A DNA stretch of 16,008 nt from a virus (taxonomy: Duplodnaviria; Heunggongvirae; Uroviricota; Caudoviricetes), in IMG/VR virus record IMGVR_UViG_2675903413_000007, positions 1 to 16,008 of that record, one strand, 5' to 3'. The notes under the pieces were generated by a model. That model was given only the letters and a program-made list of their open reading frames with translations. It was not told the DNA's origin and did not search any database. Shown here in pieces: positions 1-16,008 of this stretch. Numbering within the stretch: position 1 is the first letter of the stretch; each line of letters begins with the position of its first letter. Made by a program: the position numbers and the translations under genes.

Positions 1-1236
1 CTACGATAACCGCGCATTCAACATGGCTATCTGTTCGTCGTTCATGTCATCAATCCACATACCGTAAATTTCATACACCATCTGCGCAGTTTCATGCCCC
101 ATTTGGCTGGCTATAAATGCCGGGTTCGCTCCTGCCGTCAACAGCCAGCAGGCAAAAGTATGCCGCGTATGGTACGGATTACGGCGGCGAATACCAGCAC
201 GTTTTACTGCTGCATTCCACCTTGCCCCCAAACTGCTTACCGAGTAATAAGGTTTTTGTTTTCCGTTACACACCCTGGGCATGAAAACAAAATGCAGTTT
301 TTGCTTTTCGGTTCTGCCGTACTCCCGATGATAAAAGGTGATTTCGCTTTTGCGATGATGCCCGGTCAGTTTGTATTGCTCCTTCAGTGCTTCAAGAGCA
401 GGCTGCAGTAGTGTTACTGTTCGGATCCCGGCATTTGTTTTTGGGGGACCGAACATATCAAGTATCGTCAGGTTTCTTCTGACATTCACTATTCCCTTTT
501 CGAGATCCACATCCTCCCACGCCAGAGCTGCCAGTTCCCCGTGACGAAGTCCTGAGTAAACGGCAAATTTCCACAAGTTCTGGCTCTGTCCTTTTTCACT
601 TTCCATTAATGCATTGAATTCTGTTTTAGATAACGGATCAGGCTTTATTCTGTTTCGCTGTAATTTTTTTACTCCTTCAAATGGTTTAGTTGATATAAAT
701 CCCGACTGATACGCAAAACGCAACAGCGAACAGAGCAGGGCGATATAGTTATCAACTGTGCGCACGGTTCTTCCTTTTTTGTTGGATCTTGGATTATCCA
801 GGTAAAGCGTTTCTCCATGCAGCAGTTCATTCCGGTAGTTTAAGATATCGCTATAACGAATATGTGATATCGGGGTACTTTCACAAATTATTATTCTGAG
901 TGTTTTTAATTGTGATTTCGTTTTCTTCATTGTGTTTGTTGTTAACTCTGTCTCTTTAATTTTTGTCCAGATATCACAAAGCTCTCCGAACGTTTTTATG
1001 ACTCTCGTTGTCACCATTTTTGCCCCAGTGCTGGACTGGGGAAAACGTCTTAAATACTCAAATTCACCGGAGTTTATTTCATGAACTATCAGCGATCTTA
1101 AATTTCCGGCCTTTTTAATATTACTGTTTGTAATCTCCCAGCCTTTTAATGTTTCCCGACATCGTTTTCCTCGAAACATGAACCAGATGCGAATGTATCT
1201 ACCTCTAATCTCGACACCTGTTGGTAATTTAGACAT
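1..1236 (-). CDS. intR: Phage integrase, tyrosine recombinase (Rac prophage IntR-like), 411 aa
   Basis: Complete 411-aa ORF with ATG at 1236-1234 and stop at 3-1. Translation matches the Rac integrase as I recall it; the C-terminal region carries the tyrosine-recombinase R...HxxR...Y pattern. Position next to the xis gene is typical. Confidence 0.93.
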   Translation of the reverse strand: MSKLPTGVEIRGRYIRIWFMFRGKRCRETLKGWEITNSNIKKAGNLRSLIVHEINSGEFEYLRRFPQSSTGAKMVTTRVIKTFGELCDIWTKIKETELTTNTMKKTKSQLKTLRIIICESTPISHIRYSDILNYRNELLHGETLYLDNPRSNKKGRTVRTVDNYIALLCSLLRFAYQSGFISTKPFEGVKKLQRNRIKPDPLSKTEFNALMESEKGQSQNLWKFAVYSGLRHGELAALAWEDVDLEKGIVNVRRNLTILDMFGPPKTNAGIRTVTLLQPALEALKEQYKLTGHHRKSEITFYHREYGRTEKQKLHFVFMPRVCNGKQKPYYSVSSLGARWNAAVKRAGIRRRNPYHTRHTFACWLLTAGANPAFIASQMGHETAQMVYEIYGMWIDDMNDEQIAMLNARLS

Positions 1237-1237
1237 A

Positions 1238-1453
1238 TCATGAGTCTTTGATAAACTGATTTATCTTTGGATAGTTGTACCAGATAATCCCTCGTTTGCT
1301 GTCTGGCTTACCTAAAGGAGATACTCGTTTGAAGTGGAAGCCCTCCACCCAACAGTTCTGGCGGTATGCTTCAATTTGTCTGGCCCCCAGACCAGTGCGA
1401 AGCATCAGGCCGTATTCAACCATCCACTCTTCATTAAAGATTACTTGTGCCAT
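1238..1453 (-). CDS. xisR: Excisionase / DNA-binding protein (Rac XisR/YdaQ-like), 71 aa
   Basis: Small ORF immediately upstream of int on the same strand. ATG at 1453 is preceded by AGGTGA 5-6 nt upstream; the track start at 1477 is a TTG. Translation [35 protein letters not shown]... matches Rac YdaQ from memory. Confidence 0.82.
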
Positions 1454-1531
1454 CGCATCACCTCTGGCAGGCGCCAATGTTAGACTGAAATTGACGCCCG
1501 ATGTTGATTATTAATAATCAGCTATGAAGTT

Positions 1532-1741
1532 TTAATTTGAATACAATGCAATTCTCGAGGACTGAAGTTTCTCGCAATTAAAATTTATCAGTTTTACTTT
1601 CTGCTCTCTGGAAACGCCTGCTTCTTTTTTACCTGAGAGCATTTTTTCGCATTCTGATTTCGTTAGTTTAGATTTTGAATATCTTGTCCAGTTAGTAGGA
1701 GTGCCACCTTCCTTTTCAATAGTGGCGGTAATTTTATACAT
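1532..1741 (-). CDS. ydaC: Rac prophage small protein YdaC-like (DUF1187), 69 aa
   Basis: ORF MYKITATIEKEGGTPTNWTRYSKSKLTKSECEKMLSGKK... in the conserved Rac order between xisR and ralR. Start taken at the internal ATG (1741) that overlaps the ralR stop by 8 nt; the track ORF extends to 1813. Confidence 0.65.
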   Translation of the reverse strand: MYKITATIEKEGGTPTNWTRYSKSKLTKSECEKMLSGKKEAGVSREQKVKLINFNCEKLQSSRIALYSN

Positions 1742-1928
1742 GAACACCTCCATTATTATTTCCAGTGGTTCGTTTATTCCATCTTTCGAGTGCTTCTTTT
1801 TCACTTCCACCATAACCGGTTCGGGATTCGCATCCGTTACACTTCGCTCGGTAATATCCTGAAATGGCTTTCACCGTTACTGATGGACAACCACAAAATG
1901 GACATGGTTTAACATTGTCATATCTCAT
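1734..1928 (-). CDS. ralR: Restriction alleviation protein Lar/RalR, 64 aa
   Basis: Translation MRYDNVKPCPFCGCPSVTVKAISGYYRAKCNGCESRTGYGGSEKEALERWNKRTTGNNNGGVHV matches Rac RalR from memory, including the CxxC...CxxC pattern. Start taken at the third Met of the track ORF. Confidence 0.88.
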   Translation of the reverse strand: MRYDNVKPCPFCGCPSVTVKAISGYYRAKCNGCESRTGYGGSEKEALERWNKRTTGNNNGGVHV

Positions 1929-1984
1929 AATTTTTCTCATAAAAAATATTTCAAGTTGGCGGTGCATTACACCGCCAGGCTGAA

Positions 1985-2794
1985 TTATTCCTCTGAATTA
2001 TCGATTACACTGTATTCCCCGGTTAATACAGAGGAATCTGCAGGATCGATTGTCAGTGGTTCCTTTTCATCCATTGATACTGCACGCTGGATCTCAATTG
2101 ATACGGGCAGATATTTGAACAGGCGACGAATAGCCGTTTTCTTTGCCATTTCTTCCCAGTGAGTTACCCACGGCCCGTTATTACCAGCTTTACTCAGGCT
2201 GCGCACCAGCTCAATCTGTTTGCGCGTCATAACTTCAAACTGAGTACCTCCGTCTTTCAGTCTTGCGACAGCATAGACGTGGGTAACCGGGGCATCTTCG
2301 TTTTCTCCCGGGCGGTGTATTAACTTTTCATCAAGGCCAAATTCGAAGCTAAACTCGTCACCTTCACGGACAACACGGGCTGACAGGCTGGCGATTTGAC
2401 CAGAACGGCGAGCCAGATCAATCATGCCGCGATAGCCAATGATTAGCTGAACGTTCTTTTTACCGCTCTTTTCGTTTTTATTACCAAAAGGCAGTAAATA
2501 TGCATGACCGAGGGCGCTACCTGGCTCAAGTCCGAGCTGTGAACACTGTACGATCGCACTGACAAAACTCATAGTGTCACAGTTTCCTAACGCCGGAACT
2601 TTACGAATTTCTGTGGTGGCGATACGGATCATACGTTCAGCCGTCATATGGCGTGGAAGAGCTGCTGCCAGTTGCTCTTTCATTGATGGCTGGTTAATAA
2701 AACTAATCACGTCGCTATTTTTAACTGCTGCTGGTGCACGGTTTCCCTGAGTTTTTTGCAGATCGGCTTTTGCGATTGGTGGTTGCTTAGTCAT
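1985..2794 (-). CDS. recT: Recombinase RecT (single-strand annealing protein), 269 aa
   Basis: Translation from [21 protein letters not shown]... to ...[10 protein letters not shown] matches E. coli Rac RecT over its full length as recalled. Start at 2794 overlaps the upstream recE stop, as in K-12. Confidence 0.95.
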
Positions 2795-3479
2795 TTGCAT
2801 ATTCCTTAGCCCAGCGGGGCAGTGATAATGTCTTAATAGCTGGCCATTCATCGGTATTCAGGCAGTCAGACAGGGTTCGCAGATTGCGGTGATATTCCTG
2901 TTGACCTGCCAGTTTTGCTTCTTCGCCCATCATGAAAATTTCAACCGGATAACGTCCGCATTCAATAGTTGTGCTGGCAACCAGAAAAACGAAAGTTGGC
3001 TGCACTCCAAACTGTGCTTCATAACCGTCACTGTAGAATGCATCCTGAACGTGATAGCGGTAGTCGTAATAAGCGGTTTTGAATCGTTGAATATCCGCCG
3101 TAGTTTTCACGTCCATGATCCAGTGAAATTCAGGGATAATTTTGTCCGGACGGCACCGACACAAAATTCCTGTTTCAGGATCTTCCCAGTAAATTGATGA
3201 TTCAGCGTGTCCGGCGCTTTCAACAAGCCATTGCCCCAGCGGCAAAGCCATAACGCTTTGATACATGAGTTCAATTTTCCGGCCTTCTTCCGCAGTGATA
3301 ACCGTTTTTCCTGTGCTTGCGCATTCCATCAGAAACGCTTTCTCTTCTTCTTTTCCGGCGTTTGTACGGCGGTTAAATTCAGGTGCTACGATAAAGCGGT
3401 TACTGAATTCTTCCGGTTCAAGTACGGGAAGATGCTCCAGAGTGGCTTCGCTCTTTATTTTTTGTAACTGTCCTCGATA
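2787..3479 (-). pseudogene. recE: 5'-truncated recE (exonuclease VIII) remnant: C-terminal ~230 codons only, no start codon
   Basis: The minus-strand frame is open from the stop at 3512-3510 down to 2787 and translates to ...[54 protein letters not shown]...[15 protein letters not shown], which matches the RecE C-terminal nuclease domain. Full RecE is ~866 aa. The homology and GC-rich composition stop near 3480, where the AT-rich island begins. The only in-frame Met is at 3329. Confidence 0.85.
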
Positions 3480-3484
3480 ATTTT

Positions 3485-4264
3485 TTGTACATTGATGGTG
3501 ATAGCCGCATTACGAATGATGAGAACAAGCCGTTGGGTATTAAGGCTTTGATCGAGCGACTTTGCGCAGAGAATGGTCAAGAAACAGATCATGAGGATTT
3601 CGATTCATGGTACTGCTATGATGCTTTGAAAGCGCGTTTGCAACATATGCGTTGGTTTCAATTTTATGATGCTGTTGAGATTATCGGAGATCTATTAAGA
3701 AAAAGAGATGTAGAAAGAGGCCATACTTGGGGTAAGAAGGCATTAGAAGACATTACTTTTACATCATATCGTCAGAAATTGAACGAGTTATTCGCATCTC
3801 GAAATATTGACTGGAAAATGAATTCTGCTGGTAGGTTAGAAACACCACTACCAAATGAATTAGAACAAAAAATCGATGAAACTAACAACTTATTGCAAGA
3901 CCAGTTTGAACCTGCAAGGAGGCACTATGTGAAAGCCCGGGCTTTTGCATTAGGTGCGCATAAGGATCCAGAAAATTCCATAAAAGAATCAATAAGTGCA
4001 ATAGAAAGCATGTGTCGGACTTATTATCCTTCAGCCTCAACCTTGGGCGATGTATTAAAACTGATGAGAAAAGAAAACACTATCTCACCTATGCTTTTAA
4101 CGGTGATAGAGAAATTTTACGCTTATACAAATGCAGAGCCAGCAGTAAGACATGGTAGCAACAAGGTTTCTTCTGTCTTGGAATACGATGCTGAATTCGT
4201 GTTGCATATATCAGCAGCATTTATTAGAACAATAATACAAAGAAAAGCTGTTTTGGATAACTAA
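3485..4264 (+). CDS. Hypothetical protein, 259 aa as drawn; start uncertain (TTG, no RBS); possible Abi/HEPN-like C-terminal module
   Basis: Long AT-rich ORF beginning exactly at the recE junction. The first codon is TTG with no Shine-Dalgarno, and the frame is open upstream to 3407 inside the recE remnant, so the native N-terminus may be lost. Predicted helical protein; the C-terminal segment ...[31 protein letters not shown]... loosely resembles abortive-infection C-terminal (HEPN-type) modules. The similarity is weak and unverified. Confidence 0.5.
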
Positions 4265-4350
4265 GTCAGACTTACAGCCAACTGACTGTCTCTTATTATT
4301 CAAAACATAATAATGTTAGGTCCGCTTATCGCACATCAGGGACAACCATA

Positions 4351-4381
4351 CTCAAATCTCCCACATTGCAGGAGATTTGAG
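4351..4381. repeat. Perfect 11-bp inverted repeat (ctcaaatctcc / ggagatttgag) with 9-nt spacer between convergent island genes
   Basis: Read directly from the sequence. No flanking T- or A-tract, so it is not a canonical intrinsic terminator; it could be an attenuator or a protein-binding palindrome. Confidence 0.4.
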
Positions 4382-4504
4382 TGTGAACACGTCACCGTGG
4401 AACAAAGACTGTATCATCGGTCAAAAAAGACCTGGTTATCTAGCAAAAACTTTTAACATACCAACAAACTTAATTTATTTAAATGCTATTAATACAACTA
4501 ATGT

Positions 4505-5731
4505 TTAAAATATATATTTTATATCAACCCAATTTTTAGCATTATTGTCAACTAAAGTAACGCTATGTCCATGACTTGAATTTATAGCATCGATTACTGA
4601 TTGTGATGGGTGTCCATGTGAATGACCATCCGACTGAGCTATAAACAAAACATTATCAAAATCCGCAATTATTTTTTGATTGAAATTTAATTCCGAACCA
4701 TGATGAGGTAATGTCATCACCCTTACCGTTTTAATCACTTTTGAATAGAATTCAGCCCATTTATTATAATACAATGATGTATTAAGCTTTGAGTCACCTG
4801 TTAATAAAACAGATCTAATTCCTTTATCTCTATCAAAGAGAAAATGTCGCTCAACCCGACTATTTCTAAAACTAAACCACTCACGAGAAGGCTCATTAAC
4901 AATTTTCATCTCAGCTTCTTGATTATTAATAATCAAGAGATTGATTGATATTACATTATGATCGCCAGCAAGTTTTAAATAACACTCGCGTAATTTCTTT
5001 CTTTCCCCCGTGCTAGTTAATATTTTAAGCATTTTTTTCTTACTTAACTCAGTAAAACCATTTTCTATTAACTGCTGACTGAAAATTTCAATTTTCTTAC
5101 GTGAACGGGGCGGTATCCAAGAAATAAATGACATTAGTGTATCAGTTTTGTTTTCCCCAATCCTTTTAACCAACCAACGGTTACATTCAACATCTCCTTT
5201 GGAGTCAGATATTTTCATTGGTAAGCTTACAGCGCTACCCTTAATGTTTTCACTATTAAATATAGGAGGGTCAAAATTATCATCAATATCACTGGGGTAA
5301 AGCAAAGATATATCTGCCTCAGGCAACCTTGATTTTATCCATTTGACAGGATCAATGAGAAATTCCATAAAAAGACCTGACGTAGAATTAGAGCATAGCT
5401 CCGATGCAATTAAGTAATAGCTATCATGGATATCTAGGTATGGTAATACAACCTTGCGTATTTTGTTATCTACAAGCTGACATAAATGGTCAAATCCATT
5501 TATATGGTCTGAATCCAAATGAGAGATGTATACCACATCAATATATTTCTCATCAATATTAAAGAGAGATTTAGCCACATCCATCTCCCTACGCAACGCA
5601 TTTAATTGGTCACTTCCGCAGTCATACACATAACTGTAAAGCAAACTACCATCCCTTCCCCTCAGTCCGCCTAAACTAAATCCACCCTGGCCAACGGGAA
5701 ACAATCTTTTATGAAATACTTCTCCGCTCAT
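4505..5731 (-). CDS. Standalone ComEC/Rec2-type metallo-beta-lactamase-fold hydrolase (predicted nuclease), 408 aa
   Basis: ATG at 5731 is preceded by AAGAAGGA about 7 nt upstream. Ordered MBL motifs are visible: FPVGQGGFSL near the N-terminus, YDCGSD, ISHLDSDHINGF (HxDxDH variant, as in ComEC ISHADQDH), LPHHGSELN (ComEC HHGS motif) and SDGHSHGHPS (C-terminal GHP). A ~250-aa insertion lies between motif 2 and the HHGS motif. There are no transmembrane competence-channel segments. Very AT-rich. Confidence 0.75.
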   Translation of the reverse strand: MSGEVFHKRLFPVGQGGFSLGGLRGRDGSLLYSYVYDCGSDQLNALRREMDVAKSLFNIDEKYIDVVYISHLDSDHINGFDHLCQLVDNKIRKVVLPYLDIHDSYYLIASELCSNSTSGLFMEFLIDPVKWIKSRLPEADISLLYPSDIDDNFDPPIFNSENIKGSAVSLPMKISDSKGDVECNRWLVKRIGENKTDTLMSFISWIPPRSRKKIEIFSQQLIENGFTELSKKKMLKILTSTGERKKLRECYLKLAGDHNVISINLLIINNQEAEMKIVNEPSREWFSFRNSRVERHFLFDRDKGIRSVLLTGDSKLNTSLYYNKWAEFYSKVIKTVRVMTLPHHGSELNFNQKIIADFDNVLFIAQSDGHSHGHPSQSVIDAINSSHGHSVTLVDNNAKNWVDIKYIF

Positions 5732-6445
5732 ATATCCTTCTTACACCCTAACGTGATCATAAAATTGTCTTAAAGTTAAGTTTAAAGCTAAAAAGTCACA
5801 GCTCATTCCAACTCGTGAGCAATAGGAATGTATATTCAATCAGTTAGAGGATCAACCCGATTTTCTCTAATGAGATTTCGCAACGCAGTACGAACAGCAG
5901 CTACTTCTGCCATCTCATTAACAACCACACTGGACTACAATCCCCTAAGTTCTACAGACTGTAACCATATCCTCTTCACAGAAATAATCTGATTAATGCT
6001 GAAGGTCATCTTTCTCGACGCGAATGTATGACATAACAACCTCAGTTAATTATCTTTCGATAGAAAAATACCTTCACAAAAGGTTTAAGCAACCCATCAC
6101 AAGACAACACGCTAAGCTTGCCTTGTAAGCGTCCTGCTTAACCGAACAGTTCGCTTTCAGAGGATCTCCGGAGAACAGCTCCGATGCCTTATAAGGCCAA
6201 TGCTCGCTCCTCGCTCACTGCGGACCTAAGGTTTGGTCAGCTTGTTCGCACTCTGCCAAAAGCGGGAGTTACTCCCATTCGGTGTTAATCAATGTAGAGC
6301 AGATCAATCAACGACAAAGAAAATGAGAGGCATATCACTACTCATATGAAAATTATTGTAGTAAAGTGAGCCGTAAGTTCATCATTTATAAATCATATAG
6401 CATATATGTTATATCAATTTTAATTTAAATGGCAGAATAATTACC

Positions 6446-7150
6446 ATGGAAAAAATTAAAGCTCCTTGTCCATATTGTAAAGGTGAAAAAAATTGCCACA
6501 TAATAGGCCATAAAAAAAGAGAATGGAGTGAGGATGATGGGGGCAACTATTTTTGGGCTGAAAGTGAATACAAATTATTAGAGTGTATGGGGTGCGACGG
6601 AATATTTACATATATTAAATCCCGTCACAGTGAAGATTACGACATTGAAAGAGATGAGTCAGGCTATGATTGTATGGTATATAACTATCATATATCAACA
6701 TATCCCACTCAAGAGCAAGAAGAGATTAGACCAACTTGGTTTGGTGAGATATTAAACAAAGATCGTCAGCTGTATGTAATAATGAACGAAATGTACATCG
6801 CATTTCAAAATAAATCATTCATTTTAGCGGCGATTGGACTTAGAACTATTTTTGACAGAACAGTTGAGGTTCTAAATATTCATCCAGGATATACATTAGG
6901 CCAGAAGGTTGACATTCTTAAAGAGGAAGGTTTTATTGGGGAAACAGAAAGGAGCCAACTTAAAATTGTAACCGAAGCTGGCAACTCAGCTGCACACAGG
7001 ACATGGGCACCGAACGAAACTGAATTTAAATCGCTTTTGGTAATTATAGAAAATTTTGTAATGCGAACAATACTAAAAAATGAGGATATATTTAAGATTA
7101 CAGAAAAATTACCTGCGAAATATCCAAGACCTCCCAAAAAGCAAGAATAA
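6446..7150 (+). CDS. Zn-ribbon + DUF4145-like (HEPN-superfamily) protein, 234 aa
   Basis: The N-terminus has CPYC...(35 aa)...CMGC, a CxxC-CxxC zinc ribbon. The C-terminal ~100 aa contain AAIGLRTIFDRTVEVL and the motif TEAGNSAAHRTW, which matches the conserved GNxAAH signature of DUF4145 domains as I recall it. AT-rich; divergent from the MBL gene. Confidence 0.7.
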   Translation: MEKIKAPCPYCKGEKNCHIIGHKKREWSEDDGGNYFWAESEYKLLECMGCDGIFTYIKSRHSEDYDIERDESGYDCMVYNYHISTYPTQEQEEIRPTWFGEILNKDRQLYVIMNEMYIAFQNKSFILAAIGLRTIFDRTVEVLNIHPGYTLGQKVDILKEEGFIGETERSQLKIVTEAGNSAAHRTWAPNETEFKSLLVIIENFVMRTILKNEDIFKITEKLPAKYPRPPKKQE

Positions 7151-7559
7151 TGTACGTAAGTGTAAATAGAGCTAAGAGATTATATATTGACTCTGGTTAT
7201 CTCTATTAGCACATGCTTTTTGTAATGCCTTAACTGATTATTTAAACTCCTGTCAGCTTTTCGCTCAAAGCGGACTAAAGTGTTGGCTTGTGACTGACTT
7301 AGCGCATTTAAGGAAGTGGTGGTGGTGACGGGGTGTTGTGTCCCATTTCCACAGAATAAATCAGAGAAACTATAGCGGCTGTAATGGCAATCTATGGTCT
7401 TGCTATTGCTCTTATGGATCACCTTTCTGATTGATTTCATATTGGCGAGGTAACGGGAGTTAAGTAGAATAGCTGCGGGTGCTTGAGGCTGTCTGCCTCG
7501 GGCATGAACACCAAAGGCAGATAGAGAAAAGCCCCAGTTAACATTACGCGTCCGGCAAG

Positions 7560-7640
7560 ACGCTTAACATTAATCTGAGGCCACATCTATGCTTTGCATA
7601 CGTAGATTAGCCTCTTACCGACCAAAAGGTCAAGGAGAAG
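7560..7640 (-). ncRNA. sok: Expected Sok-type antisense RNA opposite the mok/hok leader (position approximate)
   Basis: Inferred from hok-family locus architecture only; no promoter or terminator for it was pinned down in the sequence. Confidence 0.25.
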
Positions 7641-7837
7641 CAGGCTATGAAGCAGCAAAAGGCGATGTTAATCACCCTGATCGTCATCTGTTTAACCGTT
7701 ATAGTGACGGTACTGGTAACGAGGAAAGACCTCTGCGAGGTACGAATCCGAACCGACCAGACGGAGGTCGCTGTCTTCACAGCTTACGAACTTGGGGAGT
7801 AAGAGGACCAGCGGGGAGAAATCCCCGCAACCTCTGA
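7589..7837 (+). CDS. mok: Mok-type overlapping reading frame (modulator of killing) of the hok locus
   Basis: An 82-codon ORF in a different frame that starts upstream of hok and fully overlaps it, which is the canonical mok arrangement. Confidence 0.5.
   Translation: MLCIRRLASYRPKGQGEAGYEAAKGDVNHPDRHLFNRYSDGTGNEERPLRGTNPNRPDGGRCLHSLRTWGVRGPAGRNPRNL
7647..7802 (+). CDS. hokD: Hok-family type I toxin (HokD/RelF-like membrane peptide), 51 aa
   Basis: ATG at 7647 with AAGGAGA about 10 nt upstream. Translation MKQQKAMLITLIVICLTVIVTVLVTRKDLCEVRIRTDQTEVAVFTAYELGE is near-identical to E. coli HokD/RelF and Gef/HokC as recalled. It has a single transmembrane helix and the conserved Cys. Confidence 0.9.
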   Translation: MKQQKAMLITLIVICLTVIVTVLVTRKDLCEVRIRTDQTEVAVFTAYELGE

Positions 7838-8265
7838 TGTATTATGCATCCTCAACGCAGCCACAGTTAACCTGATTGGCGGGTTTATTTCATCTGTAAA
7901 TATTTTTATAAAAATAATGCCCACGCACAGCATAAAACAAAAAGTATTACAGATAAAAAAGGAACGTAATGTGCAGATTTGTTGTTTTCCATATTTACTC
8001 ACCTTAATATGATTAATCCTGATAGGGTTGTTATTTCAGCGGTTTTCAAATGAGATATTATGGTGATCTGACAAATTTGCATAGCATTAAAATTTAATTT
8101 GTTTAACCACTTTTAATAATAAGCGTTGTTTGCATCCCAGCAATCTGTTGTTTGGTTTTTATTCCATTAAGGTGGGGGCTTTACACTGGAACCAGTTTAT
8201 TTATACTTTATACGTCAGCCTGAACAACTGGCATCTGCTGCACTGCGCCATCGAGAGATTGAGAA

Positions 8266-8865
8266 ATGGCGCATATACAACTGGTCAAACAAACTTCTTC
8301 TGGTTTACTTCTCCCGGCGACGCCGGAGAGTTGCGATTTTCTGCATCAAATCAAAATAGGTGAGTGGATACACGCAGACTTTAAGCGTGTGCGTAACTAC
8401 GCATTCCACAAGCGTTTTTTCAAACTCCTGCAACTGGGATTCGATTACTGGACTCCGGTCGGTGGGGCGATCACGCCTCGCGAACGAGAACTGCTGTCTG
8501 GTTTCGTTGATTACCTGTGCGAATCAGTTGGTCGGGAACACACGCCAGCCCTGAGTGATGCCGCAGAGCAATACCTTAACACCGTTGCGACTCGTAGAAC
8601 CCGGGATACGGCGTTGCTAAAGTCGTTTGAGGCTTTCCGCGAGTGGGTAACCATTCAGGCCGGATTTTACACCGAGCATATTTATCCGGACGGTAGCCGT
8701 GGGCGTCGGGCAAAATCCATCGCTTTTGCGAATATGGACGAAGTCGAGTTTCAGCAGGTTTATAAATCTGTACTGAATGTGCTGTGGAACTGGATTCTGT
8801 TCCGTAAATTCTCCTCTCAGGAGGAAGTTGAAAATGTGGCCGCACAACTACTGGAGTTTGCGTAA
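8266..8865 (+). CDS. Conserved lambdoid nin-region protein of unknown function, 199 aa
   Basis: GC-normal ORF whose stop overlaps the next start (TAATG at 8863-8867), i.e. translationally coupled to the YbcO-like gene. I do not recognise a specific family with certainty. Confidence 0.6.
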   Translation: MAHIQLVKQTSSGLLLPATPESCDFLHQIKIGEWIHADFKRVRNYAFHKRFFKLLQLGFDYWTPVGGAITPRERELLSGFVDYLCESVGREHTPALSDAAEQYLNTVATRRTRDTALLKSFEAFREWVTIQAGFYTEHIYPDGSRGRRAKSIAFANMDEVEFQQVYKSVLNVLWNWILFRKFSSQEEVENVAAQLLEFA

Positions 8866-9155
8866 TGGTGAATTTACGTAAAGCGGCTAAAGGCCAGATG
8901 TGCCAGATCAGAATCCCTGGCTACTGCAATCACAATCCCGAAACCTCTGTGCTGGCGCATTACAGGCTGGCGGGGACGTGCGGAACAGCGACAAAACCAC
9001 ACGATATGCAGGCGGCGATAGCCTGTAGCTCATGCCACGATCTAATCGACGGGCGGGTAAAAACCAGCGATTACACCAAAGAAGAATTGCGCCTGATGCA
9101 TGCTGAAGGGGTTTTTCGCACACAAGAAATCTGGAGAAAGAAAGGTCATTTATGA
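8865..9155 (+). CDS. YbcO-like nin-region protein (DUF1364, Zn-binding putative nuclease), 96 aa
   Basis: Translation MVNLRKAAKGQMCQIRIPGYCNHNPETSVLAHYRLAGTCGTATKPHDMQAAIACSSCHD... shows the Cys/His pattern and overall similarity to DLP12 YbcO as recalled. Its stop overlaps the next start (ATGA at 9152-9155). Confidence 0.7.
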   Translation: MVNLRKAAKGQMCQIRIPGYCNHNPETSVLAHYRLAGTCGTATKPHDMQAAIACSSCHDLIDGRVKTSDYTKEELRLMHAEGVFRTQEIWRKKGHL

Positions 9156-9694
9156 TTTACCCAACGAATACAGGAAAAAGCGGAGAACACCTTCGCCTCA
9201 CCACGCTGGAAAGTGTCTGGATTCAGGGAAAACTACGTATGTGGGGGCGCTGGTCGTATATTGGCGGTGGCAGGTCAGGGAATATGTTCAATCAGTTGTT
9301 GGCATCCAAAAAACTGACGAAAACAGCCATTAATGAAGCCCTGCGCAGAATGAAAAAAGCGGGAATAGAGAAAGCTGAGCTGGAAGCGTTTTTGCGAGAG
9401 ATGATCAACGGCAAGCAAAAGAGCTGGCTGGCGCATTGTACTGATGCAGAGGCGTTATGTATTGATCGAGTCATAAGTGAGGTGCTGGCAGAGCATCCAG
9501 GATTGATTTGCATTCTCCGGCAACGCTATGAAGGGCGGGGGATGACTAAGCGCAAAATGGCTGAATTGCTAAATGATGCACACCCAGAGTGGTGTTTTAG
9601 CACATGCGAAAAACGGATTGCTAATTGGTTAGCTGTTGCTGAGTATGCCCTATATATTCCCATGCGTGAATCATTTGCTGAGAAAATGGCTTGA
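9152..9694 (+). CDS. Putative late-gene antiterminator Q (non-lambda, phage 21/82-like type), 180 aa
   Basis: Last gene of the coupled nin-like operon, followed within ~80 bp by a strong intrinsic terminator (tR'-like) and further downstream by a phage-21-type lysis cassette. The call rests on position and context, not on a recognised motif. Confidence 0.5.
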   Translation: MIYPTNTGKSGEHLRLTTLESVWIQGKLRMWGRWSYIGGGRSGNMFNQLLASKKLTKTAINEALRRMKKAGIEKAELEAFLREMINGKQKSWLAHCTDAEALCIDRVISEVLAEHPGLICILRQRYEGRGMTKRKMAELLNDAHPEWCFSTCEKRIANWLAVAEYALYIPMRESFAEKMA

Positions 9695-9773
9695 TTTCTT
9701 ACGTATAAACTGCTTCAATTTTGCTATGCTTCGCAAAGCTGTATCGCGAGGCGGATTGCAGACATGGACATCG

Positions 9774-9803
9774 TAAAAAAACCGCTTAATGCGGTTTTTT
9801 TAC
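9774..9803 (+). terminator. Intrinsic terminator (tR'-like): aaaaaa-ACCGC-ttaat-GCGGT-ttttttt
   Basis: GC stem with 5-nt loop followed by a 7-T run; the upstream A-tract makes it potentially bidirectional. Located just after the Q-like gene. Confidence 0.7.
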
Positions 9804-10121
9804 GTCAGGAAAGCAGGGGAGAATGCTGCTAGTTGGGCAACTGGTCTTTCTGCTCCAAATTATAACAGAGACCAGTTATAGTTTCGGTGCTGTGTTTTTT
9901 TTACAATATTGTGATAACACATTGCTGGCGGGAGTTTTGATATTTCTTGGCAGGGGCTGATGATGCGTTATCCTGATGTCGTCAACTCATATAAAATGAG
10001 ATGAGAGATCATTGCAGGGTGGTTTGTAATTCGCTGTTTAGCGGGACAATATGTTGTCTGATACAAGACACCCGACGCCTCAGATTACTATAATAAAGAC
10101 GAAGCATCCTTTGTATTGACC

Positions 10122-10147
10122 AACCGCCTGTTTAGGCGGTTCTTTTT
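10122..10147 (+). terminator. Intrinsic terminator: AACCGCCT-gttt-AGGCGGTT-cttttt
   Basis: Perfect 8-bp stem and 4-nt loop followed by a T-rich tract, read directly from the sequence. Confidence 0.6.
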
Positions 10148-10679
10148 GGGCTGGTTTATTGTATGCCAAATGATTATTAAAAAGGTTGTGTTAATAACAA
10201 AATCCGAAATAATATGCCTGCATATTTTTATCTTGCTTATATTCTGCATATTGTGCATAGCAGGCTCATCCCTGCAATCAAAACTGTATGATGAGTATTT
10301 TTTGTTTTCCTTTTTTCCAGTCATCTGATGATGACCTGCTTCTTTTTAATCCGGATCGACATCAGTTTTTTAAGATAATTCCTGCGAGTTATATGCATAA
10401 ATACCACAAACTCCGCATTTTATGTGGTTGGGAGTTGCCGGGCGCGCAGTGAGTTTGCTAAGAAAACTCCTGCATGGTGAATCCCCCTGTGCGGTGGGGT
10501 GATACCATTAACCTTTTCTGTCGCCGACAGGTATCACGAACATTTTGTTCACCGGGAGGCACCCGGCACCATGCACTTCAATAGATTCTCTCCACATTAT
10601 GGATATTCTTTCAGAATATCCCACGCAGACTTTGTGTAAATGTTAACAAATGTGCGTTTTATTTGATCTGATTCGCTGT

Positions 10680-10709
10680 TTGAGCGTCCAAAACAACGGT
10701 ATATATAAT
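10680..10709 (+). promoter_or_regulatory. Candidate sigma70 promoter for the lipoprotein moron (-35 ttgagc, 18-bp spacer, -10 tataat)
   Basis: Consensus -10 hexamer TATAAT at 10704-10709 with a TTGAGC -35 at 10680-10685, about 30 bp upstream of the lipoprotein ATG and its GAGGA RBS. Confidence 0.4.
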
Positions 10710-10738
10710 CCTTTACTATATGACATATGTGAGGAAAA

Positions 10739-11167
10739 ATGGGTTTTCGTAGCGCATCAATTCTTACGTTGATTATTAGTGGGATTATTATCGGGTGCAC
10801 TGATGCTGTATCGACAAATTATCATGACCGTACATCATATTACTCCGATAAAGTAATAGAGACACAGTATGTGAGTTCATCTGAACGTACTTCTGATGTT
10901 AGTGAGGATATCCGTCTGTATGCCCATCAAATCAAGAGCGCCATCGAAAAACAGTTCGGGGATGCGAGTAAGTATTCAGGAAAAGAGTGTACACTGAGAA
11001 TGCATATGGCCCCGAATGGCCTTCTACTGGAGGTTAAAAGAGAAAGTGGAGACCTCGATTTATGTCGTGAAGCGATGAATGCGATAAAGAATGCTGATAT
11101 ACCTGCCCCCCCTTCGCCGGAAGTATATAAAGTATTTCAAAATGGGGTGCTGGATTTTAAACCCTGA
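10739..11167 (+). CDS. Lipoprotein with TolA domain III-like C-terminal domain, 142 aa
   Basis: Signal peptide with lipobox IIGC; GAGGA RBS. The C-terminal segment YAHQIKSAIEKQFGDASKYSGKECTLRMHMAPNGLLLEVKRESGDLDLCREAMNAIKNADIPAPPSPEVYKVFQNGVLDFKP aligns closely with the C-terminus of E. coli TolA (YAGQIKSAIESKFYDASSYAGKTCTLRIKLAPDGMLLDIKPEGGDPALCQAALAAAKLAKIPKPPSQAVYEVFKNAPLDFKP, from memory). Confidence 0.8.
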   Translation: MGFRSASILTLIISGIIIGCTDAVSTNYHDRTSYYSDKVIETQYVSSSERTSDVSEDIRLYAHQIKSAIEKQFGDASKYSGKECTLRMHMAPNGLLLEVKRESGDLDLCREAMNAIKNADIPAPPSPEVYKVFQNGVLDFKP

Positions 11168-11317
11168 TATTTATTGTTTTGTAATAAACGGTTTCGGCTT
11201 AGGTTTGTTCTGACACAGCTACGGCACTGAGCTAAATTTAGCGGATAGTCAGCTCTGAGCCAGTGGCGGACGTAACAACTACTATTGCTGAGATTTTAAT
11301 GGATTGAGGAGCAAGAA

Positions 11318-11713
11318 GTGGGATTAAAGAAAATCGTTATGTTGACTTTTTGGGTCGGTTTTGTTGCGGGATGCACACCTTTACACCCTTCAGATTGCCA
11401 CAAAACTACTGCTACAGGTAGTTGCAGTTCAGGACGCTGGGATGATCAGGATGAATGGGGGGCGCAAGCGCGGGGAATCAGAGCTGCAATTAATGCCAAA
11501 CTTGATGAGCCGCATAACTGGAAAGGGAAAAAATGCAGGTTGCATATGGAATTCTCTCAGGATGGCACGGCGTTAAAAATATCTACCAGTAACGGTGATA
11601 AAGCCTATTGCGAAGCGATAAAGTCCGCAGCTCATAAAGCCAAATTTCCGGCCTTCAACAATCCGGAAGTCTACAGAGATTTTCAGAAATCTGGCTTTGA
11701 CATGCGAGGTTAG
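11318..11713 (+). CDS. Second lipoprotein with TolA domain III-like C-terminal domain (divergent paralog), 131 aa
   Basis: GTG start at 11318 preceded by GAGGAG; lipobox VAGC. The C-terminus KCRLHMEFSQDGTALKISTSNGDKAYCEAIKSAAHKAKFPAFNNPEVYRDFQKSGFDMRG keeps the TolA-III pattern (C...L...DG.....GD...C.A...A.....P.....VY..F...). Confidence 0.75.
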   Translation: MGLKKIVMLTFWVGFVAGCTPLHPSDCHKTTATGSCSSGRWDDQDEWGAQARGIRAAINAKLDEPHNWKGKKCRLHMEFSQDGTALKISTSNGDKAYCEAIKSAAHKAKFPAFNNPEVYRDFQKSGFDMRG

Positions 11714-11838
11714 CTCTTCAATTACTATATCTCATTCATAGCAAACTGACAGATTTGATGATGTTCTATATACGAAACCTGTGATGTCAAGTCTGAGCTA
11801 ATACAAATAAACATAATATCAGAGAAATACATTTTATT

Positions 11839-11862
11839 AGCTCGCTACGGCGAGCTTTTTAT
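11839..11862 (+). terminator. Intrinsic terminator after the lipoprotein moron: AGCTCGC-tacg-GCGAGCT-ttttt
   Basis: Perfect 7-bp stem, 4-nt loop and T-tract, read directly from the sequence. Confidence 0.6.
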
Positions 11863-11964
11863 ATTGCATCGTCTCCAGCATATATATCAATTAAGGCTCT
11901 GATTGATGTGTCTGAAAGCCTACACATAATAACTATGCCATCCGTTCCGTGCGGAGGTGAGGCT

Positions 11965-12180
11965 ATGAAATCCATGGACAAAATTTCAACAGGCATTGCC
12001 TACGGCACCTCCGCAGGCAGTGCTGGCTACTGGTTTTTACAGTTGCTCGATAGAGTAACTCCGTCACAGTGGGCTGCAATCGGTGTGCTGGGTAGCCTGG
12101 TATTTGGCCTGCTGACGTACCTGACAAACCTTTATTTCAAGATTAAAGAAGATAAGCGCAAGGCTGCGAGAGGTGAATAA
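11965..12180 (+). CDS. Phage 21-type pinholin S (dual-start MKSM motif), 71 aa
   Basis: Translation [71 protein letters not shown] matches S21 as recalled. GGAGGTGA RBS upstream; stop overlaps the endolysin start (TAATG). The track ORF begins earlier, at 11908. Confidence 0.88.
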
Positions 12181-12677
12181 TGCCTCCATCATTACGAAAA
12201 GCCGTTGCTGCTGCTATTGGTGGCGGAGCAATTGCTATAGCATCAGTGTTAATCACTGGCCCAAGTGGTAACGATGGTCTGGAAGGTGTCAGCTACATAC
12301 CATACAAAGATATTGTTGGTGTATGGACCGTATGTCACGGGCATACAGGAAAAGACATCATGCTCGGTAAAACGTATACCAAAGCAGAATGCAAAGCACT
12401 CTTGAATAAAGACCTTGCCACTGTCGCCAGACAAATTAACCCATACATCGAAGTCGATATACCGGAAACAACGCGCGGCGCTCTTTACTCATTCGTTTAC
12501 AACGTGGGTGCTGGCAATTTCAGAACATCGACGCTTCTTCGCAAAATAAACCAGGGCGATATCAAAGGCGCATGTGATCAGTTACGTCGCTGGACATATG
12601 CTGGCGGTAAGCAATGGAAAGGTCTCATGACTCGTCGTGAGATTGAGCGTGAAATCTGTTTGTGGGGTCAGCAATGA
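12180..12677 (+). CDS. SAR endolysin (phage 21 R-like lysozyme, GH24), 165 aa
   Basis: N-terminal signal-anchor-release segment [18 protein letters not shown] followed by a T4-lysozyme-like catalytic region (LEG...KDI...WTV). Near-identical to the R21 sequence as recalled. Confidence 0.93.
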
Positions 12678-13138
12678 ACAGAGTAACCGCGATTATCTCC
12701 GCTCTGGTTATCTGCATCATCGTCTGCCTGTCATGGGCTGTTAATCATTACCGTGATAACGCCATTACCTATAAAGCCCAGCGCGACAAAAATGCCAAAG
12801 AACTGAAGCTGGCGAACGCGGCAATTACTGACATGCAGATGCGTCAGCGTGATGTTGCTGCGCTCGATGCAAAATACACGAAGGAGTTAGCTGATGCGAA
12901 AGCTGAAAATGATGTTCTGCGTGATGATGTTGCCGCTGGTCGTCGTCGGTTGCACATCAAAGCAGTCTGTCAGTCAGTGCGTGAAGCCACCACCGCCTCC
13001 GGCGTGGATAATGCAGCCTCCCCCCGACTGGCAGACACCGCTGAACGGGATTATTTCACCCTCCGGGAACGACTGGTAATGATGCAGGCCCAACTTGAAG
13101 GTGCTCAGCAATACATAACCGAGCAGTGTTTAAAGTAA
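12674..13138 (+). CDS. Inner-membrane spanin Rz (i-spanin)
   Basis: Translation [68 protein letters not shown]... matches lambda-type Rz. ATG overlaps the endolysin stop (ATGA). Confidence 0.93.
12894..13079 (+). CDS. Outer-membrane spanin Rz1 (o-spanin lipoprotein), embedded in Rz in the +1 frame
   Basis: Translation [52 protein letters not shown]... has lipobox VVGC and a proline-rich region; classic embedded Rz1. Confidence 0.9.
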
Positions 13139-13275
13139 AATCTTAACTACAATATGATTCATTTTGATGATTGTTTCATAAGGAACAGTGAAGTAAGATC
13201 TAAGAGGAGTTAAATTTTATACAGTATAATCATAATATTGCAGCAAGGTGGTTATAATTGAAAGAATATTTAGAT

Positions 13276-14733
13276 ATGAATACATCTCATGTAAGAGTTG
13301 TTACTCATATGTGTGGGTTCCTGGTTTGGCTCTATAGTCTTTCAATGTTGCCACCAATGGTTGTAGCATTGTTTTATAAAGAAAAAAGCCTGTTCGTTTT
13401 CTTTATAACTTTCGTTATATTTTTTTGCATTGGTGGCGGAGCGTGGTATACAACTAAGAAATCTGGCATTCAATTACGTACCCGTGATGGGTTTATTATA
13501 ATTGTAATGTTTTGGATTTTGTTTTCTGTTATTAGTGCATTCCCTTTATGGATTGACTCAGAACTTAATTTAACGTTCATTGATGCTCTGTTTGAAGGGG
13601 TTTCTGGAATAACAACAACAGGAGCAACTGTAATTGATGATGTTAGTTCATTACCTCGGGCATATTTGTACTATCGGTCACAGTTAAATTTTATAGGTGG
13701 TTTAGGAGTTATTGTTCTGGCGGTTGCTGTATTGCCATTATTGGGTATTGGTGGTGCAAAGCTTTATCAGTCAGAAATGCCGGGGCCATTTAAGGATGAC
13801 AAACTCACTCCCCGCCTGGCCGATACGTCACGGACACTGTGGATAACTTATTCTTTATTAGGTATTGCTTGTATTGTCTGTTATAGACTTGCAGGAATGC
13901 CTTTGTTTGATGCTATTTGTCACGGGATTTCCACAGTTTCGCTTGGTGGTTTCTCAACTCATAGCGAGAGTATCGGATATTTTAATAACTATTTGGTTGA
14001 GCTGGTGGCTGGTTCTTTTTCCCTGCTATCGGCTTTCAACTTCACTCTTTGGTATATTGTTATTAGCAGGAAAACGATAAAACCTTTAATCAGAGATATT
14101 GAACTTCGTTTCTTTCTGTTAATAGCCTTAGGGGTGATCATTGTTACCTCTTTCCAGGTCTGGCATATAGGTATGTATGACTTGCATGGAAGTTTTATTC
14201 ATTCGTTTTTTCTTGCCAGCTCCATGCTCACTGATAATGGTTTAGCTACGCAGGATTATGCAAGTTGGCCCACGCACACGATAGTGTTTTTGCTGTTGTC
14301 AAGTTTCTTTGGGGGATGTATAGGTTCAACTTGTGGTGGAATTAAGTCACTTCGATTTCTTATACTTTTCAAACAAAGCAAACACGAGATAAATCAGCTT
14401 TCTCATCCCAGAGCGTTGTTGAGTGTAAATGTAGGAGGGAAGATAGTTACAGATCGTGTAATGAGGTCTGTATGGAGTTTCTTTTTTCTTTATACACTCT
14501 TCACGGTGTTTTTTATACTGGTGTTAAATGGTATGGGATATGATTTTCTTACATCATTTGCAACAGTGGCTGCATGTATTAATAATATGGGATTAGGTTT
14601 TGGGGCTACTGCATCGTCATTCGGAGTGCTTAATGACATTGCAAAATGTTTAATGTGCATAGCTATGATTCTTGGTCGCCTTGAAATTTATCCTGTTATT
14701 ATATTGTTTTCAGGTTTTTTTTGGCGCTCCTAA
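13276..14733 (+). CDS. trkG: Potassium uptake protein TrkG (Trk system membrane subunit), 485 aa
   Basis: Translation from MNTSHVRVVTHMCGFLVWLYSL... matches Rac-encoded TrkG of E. coli K-12. Multi-pass membrane protein; AT-rich gene. The track ORF starts 18 nt earlier on a TTG. Confidence 0.93.
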   Translation: MNTSHVRVVTHMCGFLVWLYSLSMLPPMVVALFYKEKSLFVFFITFVIFFCIGGGAWYTTKKSGIQLRTRDGFIIIVMFWILFSVISAFPLWIDSELNLTFIDALFEGVSGITTTGATVIDDVSSLPRAYLYYRSQLNFIGGLGVIVLAVAVLPLLGIGGAKLYQSEMPGPFKDDKLTPRLADTSRTLWITYSLLGIACIVCYRLAGMPLFDAICHGISTVSLGGFSTHSESIGYFNNYLVELVAGSFSLLSAFNFTLWYIVISRKTIKPLIRDIELRFFLLIALGVIIVTSFQVWHIGMYDLHGSFIHSFFLASSMLTDNGLATQDYASWPTHTIVFLLLSSFFGGCIGSTCGGIKSLRFLILFKQSKHEINQLSHPRALLSVNVGGKIVTDRVMRSVWSFFFLYTLFTVFFILVLNGMGYDFLTSFATVAACINNMGLGFGATASSFGVLNDIAKCLMCIAMILGRLEIYPVIILFSGFFWRS

Positions 14734-14870
14734 TATATGGCTGATTTATAATTGTGAGTTTAATATTATGTTGACTCACTCATTGATCCAATACCTAACT
14801 TTACCAGCAACCCCTCCGTCCCCAGTAGCACTGGCTGCTGGGGTGCGTTTTATTCATAAAGCAAGGCTGT

Positions 14871-15161
14871 ATGAGCGAGAAATTAAAGATAGTCTATCGC
14901 CCATTACAAGAATTGTCACCGTATGCGCACAACGCCAGGACGCACAGCCCTGAGCAGGTGGCACAACTGGTAGAAAGTATTAAGCAATTCGGCTGGACTA
15001 ATCCGGTGCTGATTGACGAAAAGGGCGAAATTATTGCGGGTCACGGTCGTGTTATGGCGGCTGAAATGCTCAAAATGGATTCTGTTCCGGTCATTGTTCT
15101 GTCTGGCCTGACGGATGAGCAGAAAAAGGCGTACCGCCTGGCAGATACCTTCTGCCCGTAA
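14871..15161 (+). CDS. ynaK: ParB-like nuclease-domain protein (Rac YnaK-like), 96 aa
   Basis: Translation [67 protein letters not shown]... carries the ParB N-terminal domain signature ([11 protein letters not shown], resembling the ParB GxRRxxA box). It sits downstream of trkG as in K-12. Confidence 0.78.
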
Positions 15162-15162
15162 G

Positions 15163-16008
15163 GTGAATGGTAAGGCGCTTTCAGCTGATATAACACTGAC
15201 GCCGAAAGATATTGGTACGCTTAACTCAACAACAATGTCATTCAGCGGTGGTGCTGGTTGGTTCAAATTAGCAACGGTAACCATGCCACAGGCGAGTTCT
15301 GTTGTTTCAATTACGTTGATTGGTGGCGCGGGATTTAACGTGGGGTCACCTCAACAGGCAGGTATATCTGAACTTGTTTTGCGTGCAGGTAATGGTAATC
15401 CGAAGGGGATTACTGGTGCTTTATGGCAGCGCACATCGACAGGGTTTACAAATTTTGCCTGGGTCAATACATCTGGTGATACTTACGATATTTACGTTGC
15501 AATCGGAAATTATGCGACTGGTGTAAATATTCAATGGGATTATACCAGTAATGCCAGCGTGACGATTCATACGTCACCAGCATATTCTGCTAATAAGCCG
15601 GAAGGGTTAACGGACGGTACAGTTTATTCACTCTATACGCCATCAGAGCAGTTTTATCCGCCTGGCGCACCAATCCCGTGGCCATCAGATACCGTTCCGT
15701 CTGGCTATGCCCTGATGCAGGGGCAGACTTTTGACAAATCTGCATACCCGAAACTTGCAGCCGCTTATCCGTCAGGCGTGATCCCTGATATGCGTGGCTG
15801 GACGATTAAGGGCAAACCCGCCAGTGGTCGTGCCGTATTGTCTCAGGAACAGGACGGCATTAAATCGCACACCCACAGCGCCAGCGCATCCAGTACGGAT
15901 TTGGGGACGAAAAACACATCGTCGTTTGATTACGGAACCAAATCCACGAATAACACCGGGGCGCATACCCATAGTATTAGCGGGACTGCAAATAGTGCCG
16001 GTGCGCAC
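15163..16008 (+). pseudogene. Side tail fibre gene fragment (Stf-like), 5'-truncated and running off the 3' end of the window
   Basis: Frame open from 15163 to the window end with no convincing start. Translation ...[106 protein letters not shown] shows the repeated G.H.H His-box motifs of lambdoid and T-even tail-fibre distal regions. The ORF track does not list it, presumably because it lacks a start and a stop. Confidence 0.75.

Follow-up and report, generated by a model that had tools for sequence, protein, structure and literature searches.

The N-terminal domains of AbiJ proteins have been proposed to act as sensors of phage components or as antitoxins that restrain the HEPN domain, itself a proposed suicidal RNase (Anantharaman et al. 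2013, PMC3710099). In SadR, an Abi_C protein with RNase activity, defence depends on the HEPN motif, and R225, N226 and H232 of its RNEYGDAH sequence are needed for both RNase and anti-phage activity (PMC13590631). HepS, a prophage-encoded single HEPN protein, is activated by a phage tail-tip protein and cleaves tRNA (PMC13043305).

Here we analysed a 16,008-nucleotide stretch of viral DNA (IMG/VR record IMGVR_UViG_2675903413_000007, positions 1–16,008; hereafter the window) that derives from a Rac-type prophage at ttcA. On its (+) strand a program-made ORF list gives a 259-codon ORF with a TTG start at 3485–4264. We conclude that this ORF is the 5′-truncated remnant of a candidate defence gene, cut by an 8,368-bp deletion, and most likely a silent pseudogene of recent origin (probability roughly 0.88). 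The finding is an ordinary one, the remnant of an already catalogued family of defence candidates. The intact alleles of the gene, found elsewhere, combine an N-terminal AbiJ_NTD4 domain (residues 1–170) with a HEPN fold at residues ~175–297.

The recE junction and the reading frame across it

Translation confirms that the frame of the ORF is open back to 3407, the preceding stop being the TGA at 3404–3406, and a first reading of the locus from its letters (the sequence-only reading) was correct in describing 259 codons, a TTG start and a frame open into a recE remnant. The peptide it quoted is present near the C-terminus of the ORF. It had also placed the beginning of the ORF exactly where recE homology ends, which needs correcting: that homology stops at 3425, and the TTG lies 60 nt past the breakpoint. 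The ~60 nt between the two (3426–3484) are codons 19–38 of the same truncated gene. This is not a chance ORF, since its DNA matches the last 842 nt of an annotated 894-nt gene at 100% identity and its protein has 128 homologues, with E values down to 1e-198. G+C content falls from ~0.48 to ~0.36–0.39 across 3450–3900, which fits a changed sequence origin.

In a megablast search of 5,426 complete E. coli genomes, window 3300–4500 fell into two parts: 3300–3425/3431 matches recE in more than 2,400 genomes, and 3423–4500 is matched in only 10 of the 5,426 (nine at 100% identity, one at 99.7%). A search with the whole window identified strain GF31 as the nearest complete genome; it carries the same prophage at ttcA, at 99.4% identity, with ~8.5 kb more DNA. 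By direct alignment, window 1–3425 corresponds to positions 501–3925 of the GF31 locus (L004; 99.85% identical) and window 3423–7374 to positions 12291–16243. Relative to GF31, the window lacks L004 3926–12293, a deletion of 8,368 bp that joins recE to nucleotide 53 of the defence-candidate gene. The two blastn segments overlap at 3423–3425, and three-way sequence comparison resolves this overlap as a 3-bp microhomology, TAC, embedded in caagTACccgg on the recE side and in ccgaTACggga on the gene side. The junction is the product of a microhomology-mediated internal deletion. Prophages usually decay by way of internal deletions.

On the left of the junction, K-12 recE matches the window up to 3425. 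The alignment with GF31, where recE is annotated at L004 3287–5887, shows that the stop codon and the last 212 codons of the gene (residues 655–866 of 866) survive on the (−) strand at 2787–3425; a listed 180-residue ORF at 2787–3329 begins at an internal ATG inside this remnant. According to the GF31 annotation, the deleted DNA comprised the 5′ 1,962 nt of recE; racC, ydaE, kilR, sieB, ydaF and a small phage gene; racR, ydaS, remnants of ydaT and DUF1627, and a DUF977 gene; a gene for an ‘anti-phage deoxyguanosine triphosphatase’ (dGTPase); and the 410-bp intergenic region 5′ of the target gene together with the first 52 nt of that gene. This 410-bp region presumably held the promoter of the target gene. 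Left behind are recT and a 212-codon recE stump without the early-left promoter, and the remaining replication-region genes were lost in the same event. Given the loss of racR, ydaS/ydaT, kilR, sieB and the replication-region genes, the prophage is a grounded remnant.

Because the reading frame runs through 19 nt of recE-derived sequence (3407–3425), a chimeric gene with an N-terminus taken from recE-derived DNA might be considered, and a fusion product of the rearrangement had been proposed from the sequence. recE is encoded on the opposite strand, however, so that only its antisense is fused, and the contribution amounts to five in-frame codons (ILPVQ, 3407–3421, + strand), bounded by the TGA and containing no ATG, GTG or TTG in the translation and start-codon scan (the codon at 3407 is ATT). 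A RecE fusion protein is ruled out by the sequence on these grounds of strand, length and start codons, and we give the chimeric gene next to no credence.

The junction is real and inherited. Its exact 36-nt sequence was found in at least six independent contigs, taken from NCBI, ENA and Logan assemblies and including GCA_001269265.1; three junction contigs are 100% identical to the window over 2.5–8.3 kb, and a look-up of the exact protein found the 259-residue ORF called on 15 contigs. By megablast none of the 5,426 complete E. coli genomes has the junction, and its sequence has no match in GTDB species-representative genomes; missing from both collections, the junction marks a minor lineage. 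One metagenomic contig (L007) has the identical junction with 13 mismatches over 4.3 kb, and beyond its integrase, where other copies have ttcA, it carries a HTH_3/Peptidase_M78 gene (L007 1–516), which suggests a different flank or a tandem element.

The deleted N-terminus and the fate of the remnant

Three of the ten complete genomes that match the gene side of the junction were inspected (S40, WY517-2 and GF31), and all three carry the gene intact, in a Rac-like prophage. It is 894 nt long and encodes a 297-residue ‘hypothetical protein’ (WP_021554375.1 or WP_112044435.1). In each case it starts 52 nt upstream of the first base that matches the window; at locus L001 the gene occupies 7949–8842 and the match begins at 8001. 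It opens ATGAAGTTCTCG..., with a GGGAG Shine-Dalgarno sequence ahead of the ATG. Its homologues (n=128) are nearly all 288–305 residues long and cover 97–100% of the 297-residue query. A 5′-truncated gene, one of the options raised by the sequence-only reading, is what these comparisons reveal.

The lost N-terminus reads MKFSxRxGYDP...EDAPxWLR and stays conserved in family members of as little as 22% identity. In an alignment of 63 sequences, F3, S4, R6, P11, A22, P23, W25 and L35 are at least 90% conserved, and F3, S4 and R6 remain so after the addition of plasmid homologues from Methylocystis, Leptospira, Arthrobacter and Pseudomonas at 22–27% identity. The motif M-x-FS-x-R-x-G[YF] was encoded by the deleted 52 nt and is missing from the window copy. 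Since these 52 nt encode a motif conserved family-wide, it is implausible that the recE-adjacent arrangement is ancestral and that the intact alleles arose by insertion.

Profile searches place the parent gene in a known family. AbiJ_NTD4 (Pfam PF18863, gathering cut-off 34 bits) matches residues 1–170 of the intact protein at 34.4 bits, with profile position 1 falling on residue 1; protein P0001 reaches 35.8 bits, all 63 relatives match as well, and on these scores the parent gene is an AbiJ_NTD4 member. The window translation reaches 24.7 bits, below the cut-off, and enters the profile at position 17. Likewise, PADLOC profile PDC-S32 aligns residues 1–291 of the intact allele with positions 7–280 of its 285 (E 1.6e-33) and the 259-residue ORF with positions 74–280 only (E 1.1e-31), as for an incomplete copy of a family member. 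NCBIfam has no model for the protein, and the best that PHROGs returned was a marginal match (E 0.0096) to a family of no known function. We found no mention or experimental test of PDC-S32 in the literature searched.

These data also bear on whether the 259-residue form is the natural one and the 297-residue annotation elsewhere an over-extended start call. The ORF call itself is the one point in its favour. Residues 1–38 are, however, among the best conserved of the protein, in relatives from several phyla and down to 22% identity, and the AbiJ_NTD4 profile begins at residue 1; the native ATG has a good Shine-Dalgarno sequence, and the DNA 5′ of window 3423 is unrelated, being recE, which sets the breakpoint within the gene. 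The N-terminal conservation rules out over-called starts in the homologues, and the chance that 259 residues are the natural length is vanishingly small.

What the window retains are the 3′ 280 codons of a 297-codon gene, uninterrupted from codon 18 to the stop and without further mutations. The remainder of AbiJ_NTD4 lies at 3422–3886 (+) and consists of a hybrid codon 18 (GTA for ATA) and codons 19–172; the domain lacks its first 17 residues, codons 1–17 being absent along with the ribosome-binding site and the promoter. The C-terminal HEPN-fold domain, codons 173–297, is wholly kept at 3887–4261 (+) and is followed by the native TAA stop at 4262–4264 (+), which corresponds to L001 8840–8842.

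For each in-frame start codon from 3407 to 3760, whether ATG, GTG, TTG or near-cognate, we estimated the pairing with the 3′ end of 16S rRNA. The TTG at 3485–3487 (+), the first canonical start in the frame, falls on codon L39 of the intact protein and not on the native start; its anti-Shine-Dalgarno duplex is valued at +0.3 kcal/mol, versus −7.3 kcal/mol for the native start of the intact copies, which bears out the earlier remark that this TTG has no Shine-Dalgarno sequence. The best duplex of any in-frame start is −3.7 kcal/mol, and the first in-frame ATG is codon 93. No in-frame start scored in this part of the window has a usable Shine-Dalgarno sequence. An unusually initiated gene, the third option raised from the sequence, is not supported, as the native ATG and its GGGAG are present in the intact copies and deleted here.

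Sites resembling sigma-70 promoters are no commoner 5′ of the remnant than in shuffled sequence, the nearest on the (+) strand being ~1 kb away; the promoter and terminator consensus scans stand at chance level, so they show no strong site and are otherwise uninformative. All (+)-strand DNA 5′ of the remnant is antisense to recE′, recT, ralR, rcbA, xis and int. A terminator-like hairpin and T-run (AGAGTGGCTTCGCTCT TTATTTTTTG) lies at 3439–3464 (+), just 5′ of the TTG and inside the 5′ coding region of the gene, with counts of such sites within chance; it is also present in the intact alleles (L001 8017–8042) and is therefore probably incidental. Of the native start codon, ribosome-binding site and upstream promoter region, none is kept in the window copy.

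We weighed these observations against the possibility that the truncated ORF continues to be expressed, with translation beginning at TTG 3485, at a non-canonical codon or at an internal start, and with transcription supplied by read-through or a weak promoter. Such a protein would be shortened at its N-terminus but keep its HEPN domain intact, and it could behave as a deregulated toxin, a dominant-negative form or a functional effector. In keeping with this possibility, the sequence reads without interruption from codon 18 to the stop and matches intact alleles at 100% identity, the allele is found in several independent samples, gene callers do call the 259-residue ORF, and HEPN-only relatives that lack the N-terminal domain occur naturally, such as the 165-residue gp056 of Rhizobium phage RHEph01. 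Its undecayed state and its presence in several samples are equally expected of a recent deletion, however, and recency accounts for the former. Moreover, no in-frame start has a meaningful Shine-Dalgarno sequence, no (+)-strand promoter-like site exceeds chance and the upstream DNA is antisense to the int-xis-rcbA-ralR-recT-recE′ arm. Starting at L39 would in addition drop both the conserved motif and the first long helix (residues 24–38) of the N-terminal bundle, so that the N-terminal domain would probably misfold. We consider expression of the remnant, with any such product, improbable.

Taken together, the want of a usable start and of an evident promoter and the loss of the conserved N-terminal motif make a pseudogene the most likely state of this ORF, and the remnant is, as judged from its sequence, most likely unexpressed. 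It carries no additional mutations and is therefore most likely recent. The sequence-only reading had looked for homologues extending 100 or more residues further at the N-terminus as the mark of a pseudogene. They extend only 38 residues beyond the TTG; the conclusion holds despite this shorter extension because the native start, ribosome-binding site and promoter are physically missing. Pseudogenisation within this gene family is not unique to the window lineage: in Logan assembly SRR31950779, an allele of 88% identity (L019 518–1412) is split by a 1-nt insertion into ORFs of 57 and 256 residues, an independent event.

The fitting annotation is therefore a pseudogene, ‘AbiJ-NTD4 domain-containing protein, N-terminally truncated’, and not a 259-residue protein initiated at TTG. 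This removes one supposed effector from the island. The suggestion of a third candidate effector applies to the intact allele elsewhere, and the copy in the window, as a pseudogene, should not be counted as one. The breakpoint itself is explained and dated: a single microhomology-mediated deletion grounded the Rac prophage and clipped the adjacent defence gene.

The HEPN-fold domain and the parent family

We modelled the intact protein with AlphaFold2 on the family alignment (pLDDT 90.4, pTM 0.82). The C-terminal part of the model is an up-and-down helical bundle that is superposable on solved HEPN domains. Fold comparison gave the HEPN domain of AbiA (9.3), HEPN-MNT toxins (9.1 and 8.6), LsoA (8.7), Csm6 (7.8), HepS of Gifsy-1 (7.7) and AbiV (6.1), and the best of these matches align ~105–115 residues, corresponding to residues ~175–297. 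A sequence-profile search of the PDB found no match, and Foldseek against the PDB returned nothing significant. Pfam Abi_C (PF14355, gathering cut-off 24 bits) matches 6 of 63 relatives below threshold (best 21.9 bits, E 2e-4), and neither the window protein nor the intact allele matches it at E ≤ 1. The Abi/HEPN-like C-terminus noticed by the sequence-only reading thus holds at the level of the predicted fold, the sequence link to Abi_C being sub-threshold.

Conserved polar residues cluster in this domain. In the alignments, D199, E201, N202, K205 and E206 are invariant within the segment DPENSIKES of the second HEPN helix (codons 199–207, window 3965–3991, +), as are S209 and E212 of the same helix and R183, H185 and K188 of the first. 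The loop before the last HEPN helix holds an Arg-His dyad, in R-H-G at codons 260–262 (window 4148–4156, +), which is presumed to be catalytic and is non-canonical. R260 and H261 are invariant in the 63 relatives and in relatives at 22–31% identity. The canonical HEPN motif, Rx4-6H, is absent from the alignments, in which positions 4–6 before H261 are A/S, E and P and the dyad sits in EPxVRHG. Counted back from the C-terminus, H261 would match H232 of SadR, with the Arg apparently moved from position −7 to position −1.

A profile search with the HEPN domain alone retrieved 4,162 cluster representatives at 50% identity, 2,994 of them at E ≤ 1e-10; most representatives are 270–310 residues long and carry the domain at the C-terminus. 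The Arg-His pair is present in 145 of the 146 representatives of 50% clusters that were listed, within the last 70 residues and ~35 residues from the C-terminus. Inspection of 25 representatives showed it as [IV]RH[GAS], usually with G or A before; a canonical R-polar-x3-5-H ending at that His occurred in 1 of the 25 sampled, a 108-residue fragment. At the small end of the family is gp056 of the lytic Autographiviridae phage RHEph01 (L011 454–951), a homologue of 31% identity that is essentially the HEPN domain alone, keeps the RH dyad and weakly matches the last ~35 positions of the N-terminal domain. A HEPN homologue is odd cargo for a virulent phage.

How might the intact protein act? Drawing on the proposal for AbiJ N-terminal domains, the precedent of HepS, and the fold and conserved residues described above, we somewhat favour a model in which the protein is a self-contained abortive-infection module: its N-terminal domain senses a trigger and regulates the effector, and a HEPN RNase aborts infection. 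The ~170-residue N-terminal domain would sense a phage component, restrain the effector, or both. The HEPN domain, probably as an oligomer, would then cleave RNA, and the infected cell would be arrested. In such a site the adjacent Arg260-His261 dyad would act together with R183, H185, K188, E201, N202, K205 and E206. RNase activity itself is what the predicted fold and the conserved residues suggest.

Residues 1–20 are modelled more confidently in the full-length protein (pLDDT 72–77) than in the isolated N-terminal domain (58–66), a hint that the conserved peptide at the N-terminus could be packed against the HEPN domain. A bolder and distinctly speculative idea, which we think unlikely, is that the AbiJ_NTD4-HEPN family, with ~3,000 or more clusters at 50% identity, forms a distinct class of single-chain immune effectors, with a CARD/PYD-like six-helix N-terminal core for trigger-induced oligomerization, a relocated catalytic Arg (the adjacent dyad in place of Rx4-6H) and the strongly conserved FSxRxG peptide, which is the part lost here, as a sensor or as an autoinhibitory plug on the HEPN site. 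If so, the window allele would amount to a naturally occurring ‘plug-less’ mutant, tolerated only for want of a promoter. The likeness of the modelled N-terminal domain to death folds of the CARD/PYD type is a lead and not a finding, as such scores are common among helical bundles; a survey of bacterial death domains makes no mention of AbiJ (PMC8195603).

The parent family is large, borne by prophages and plasmids, carries a non-canonical HEPN motif and is catalogued only as the candidate PDC-S32. It would be a reasonable target for testing, and the natural truncation described here singles out the N-terminal peptide.

Genomic setting and comparison with known systems

In Rac-like prophages the gene lies in a cargo region, between the anti-phage dGTPase gene on one side and an MBL-fold gene, a DUF4145 gene and hok on the other. 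Homologues on Rahnella, Yersinia and Enterobacter plasmids have unrelated neighbours, which agrees with the single-gene class in which PADLOC places the candidate. A functional link to the adjacent MBL-fold or DUF4145 genes was considered and rejected in view of these plasmid neighbourhoods. We found nothing specific in the literature on the Rac prophage as a defence hotspot.

Two neighbours in the window are of interest in their own right. The MBL-fold gene at 4505–5731 (−), convergent with the remnant, encodes a 408-residue protein with partial matches to PADLOC LmuA (2.4e-12), a reverse transcriptase (RT)-associated MBL, Avs1a and NCBIfam 6A-MBL, every one of them falling well short of the family cut-off; we regard it as an intact candidate effector. 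The gene at 6446–7150 (+) encodes a 234-residue DUF4145 protein (Pfam E 3.2e-11; PHROG 1305, ‘DNA binding protein’, E 9.6e-30) without a match in PADLOC. DUF4145 has been classed as a HEPN family (Anantharaman et al. 2013, PMC3710099), and the island therefore has a second, intact gene of HEPN type.

Among described systems, the closest are PF18863 and PDC-S32 themselves. The intact allele shares their two-domain build of ~290 residues and their occurrence on prophages and plasmids, whereas the window copy lacks codons 1–17 and the expression signals and falls below the Pfam cut-off. AbiJ and SadR resemble the intact protein in being single proteins with a variable N-terminal domain, a C-terminal HEPN domain and a conserved His ~35 residues from the end, and relatives of the intact protein give weak Abi_C matches over the same region. 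They part at the motif around the His: SadR has R-N-x5-H, whereas the family here has N, S or C seven residues before the His and a conserved Arg directly before it.

HepS, from the Gifsy-1 prophage of Salmonella (PDB 9oik), has no detectable sequence similarity to this protein, no AbiJ_NTD4 domain and a canonical HEPN site; its trigger (the tail-tip protein J) and its tRNA target are known. Minimal HEPN proteins and HEPN-MNT toxins (PDB 2hsb, 1ufb, 5yep and 7ae2) share 11–15% identity with the domain. They use a separate MNT antitoxin, whereas the parent gene has no partner gene and its N-terminal domain is fused to the HEPN domain.

The prophage as a whole is like K-12 Rac in its ttcA-adjacent integration, its int-xis-rcbA-ralR-recT-recE left arm and its lysis/trkG right arm. 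It differs from other decayed Rac prophages in its junction of recE to a defence gene, an arrangement that none of the 5,426 complete E. coli genomes contains.
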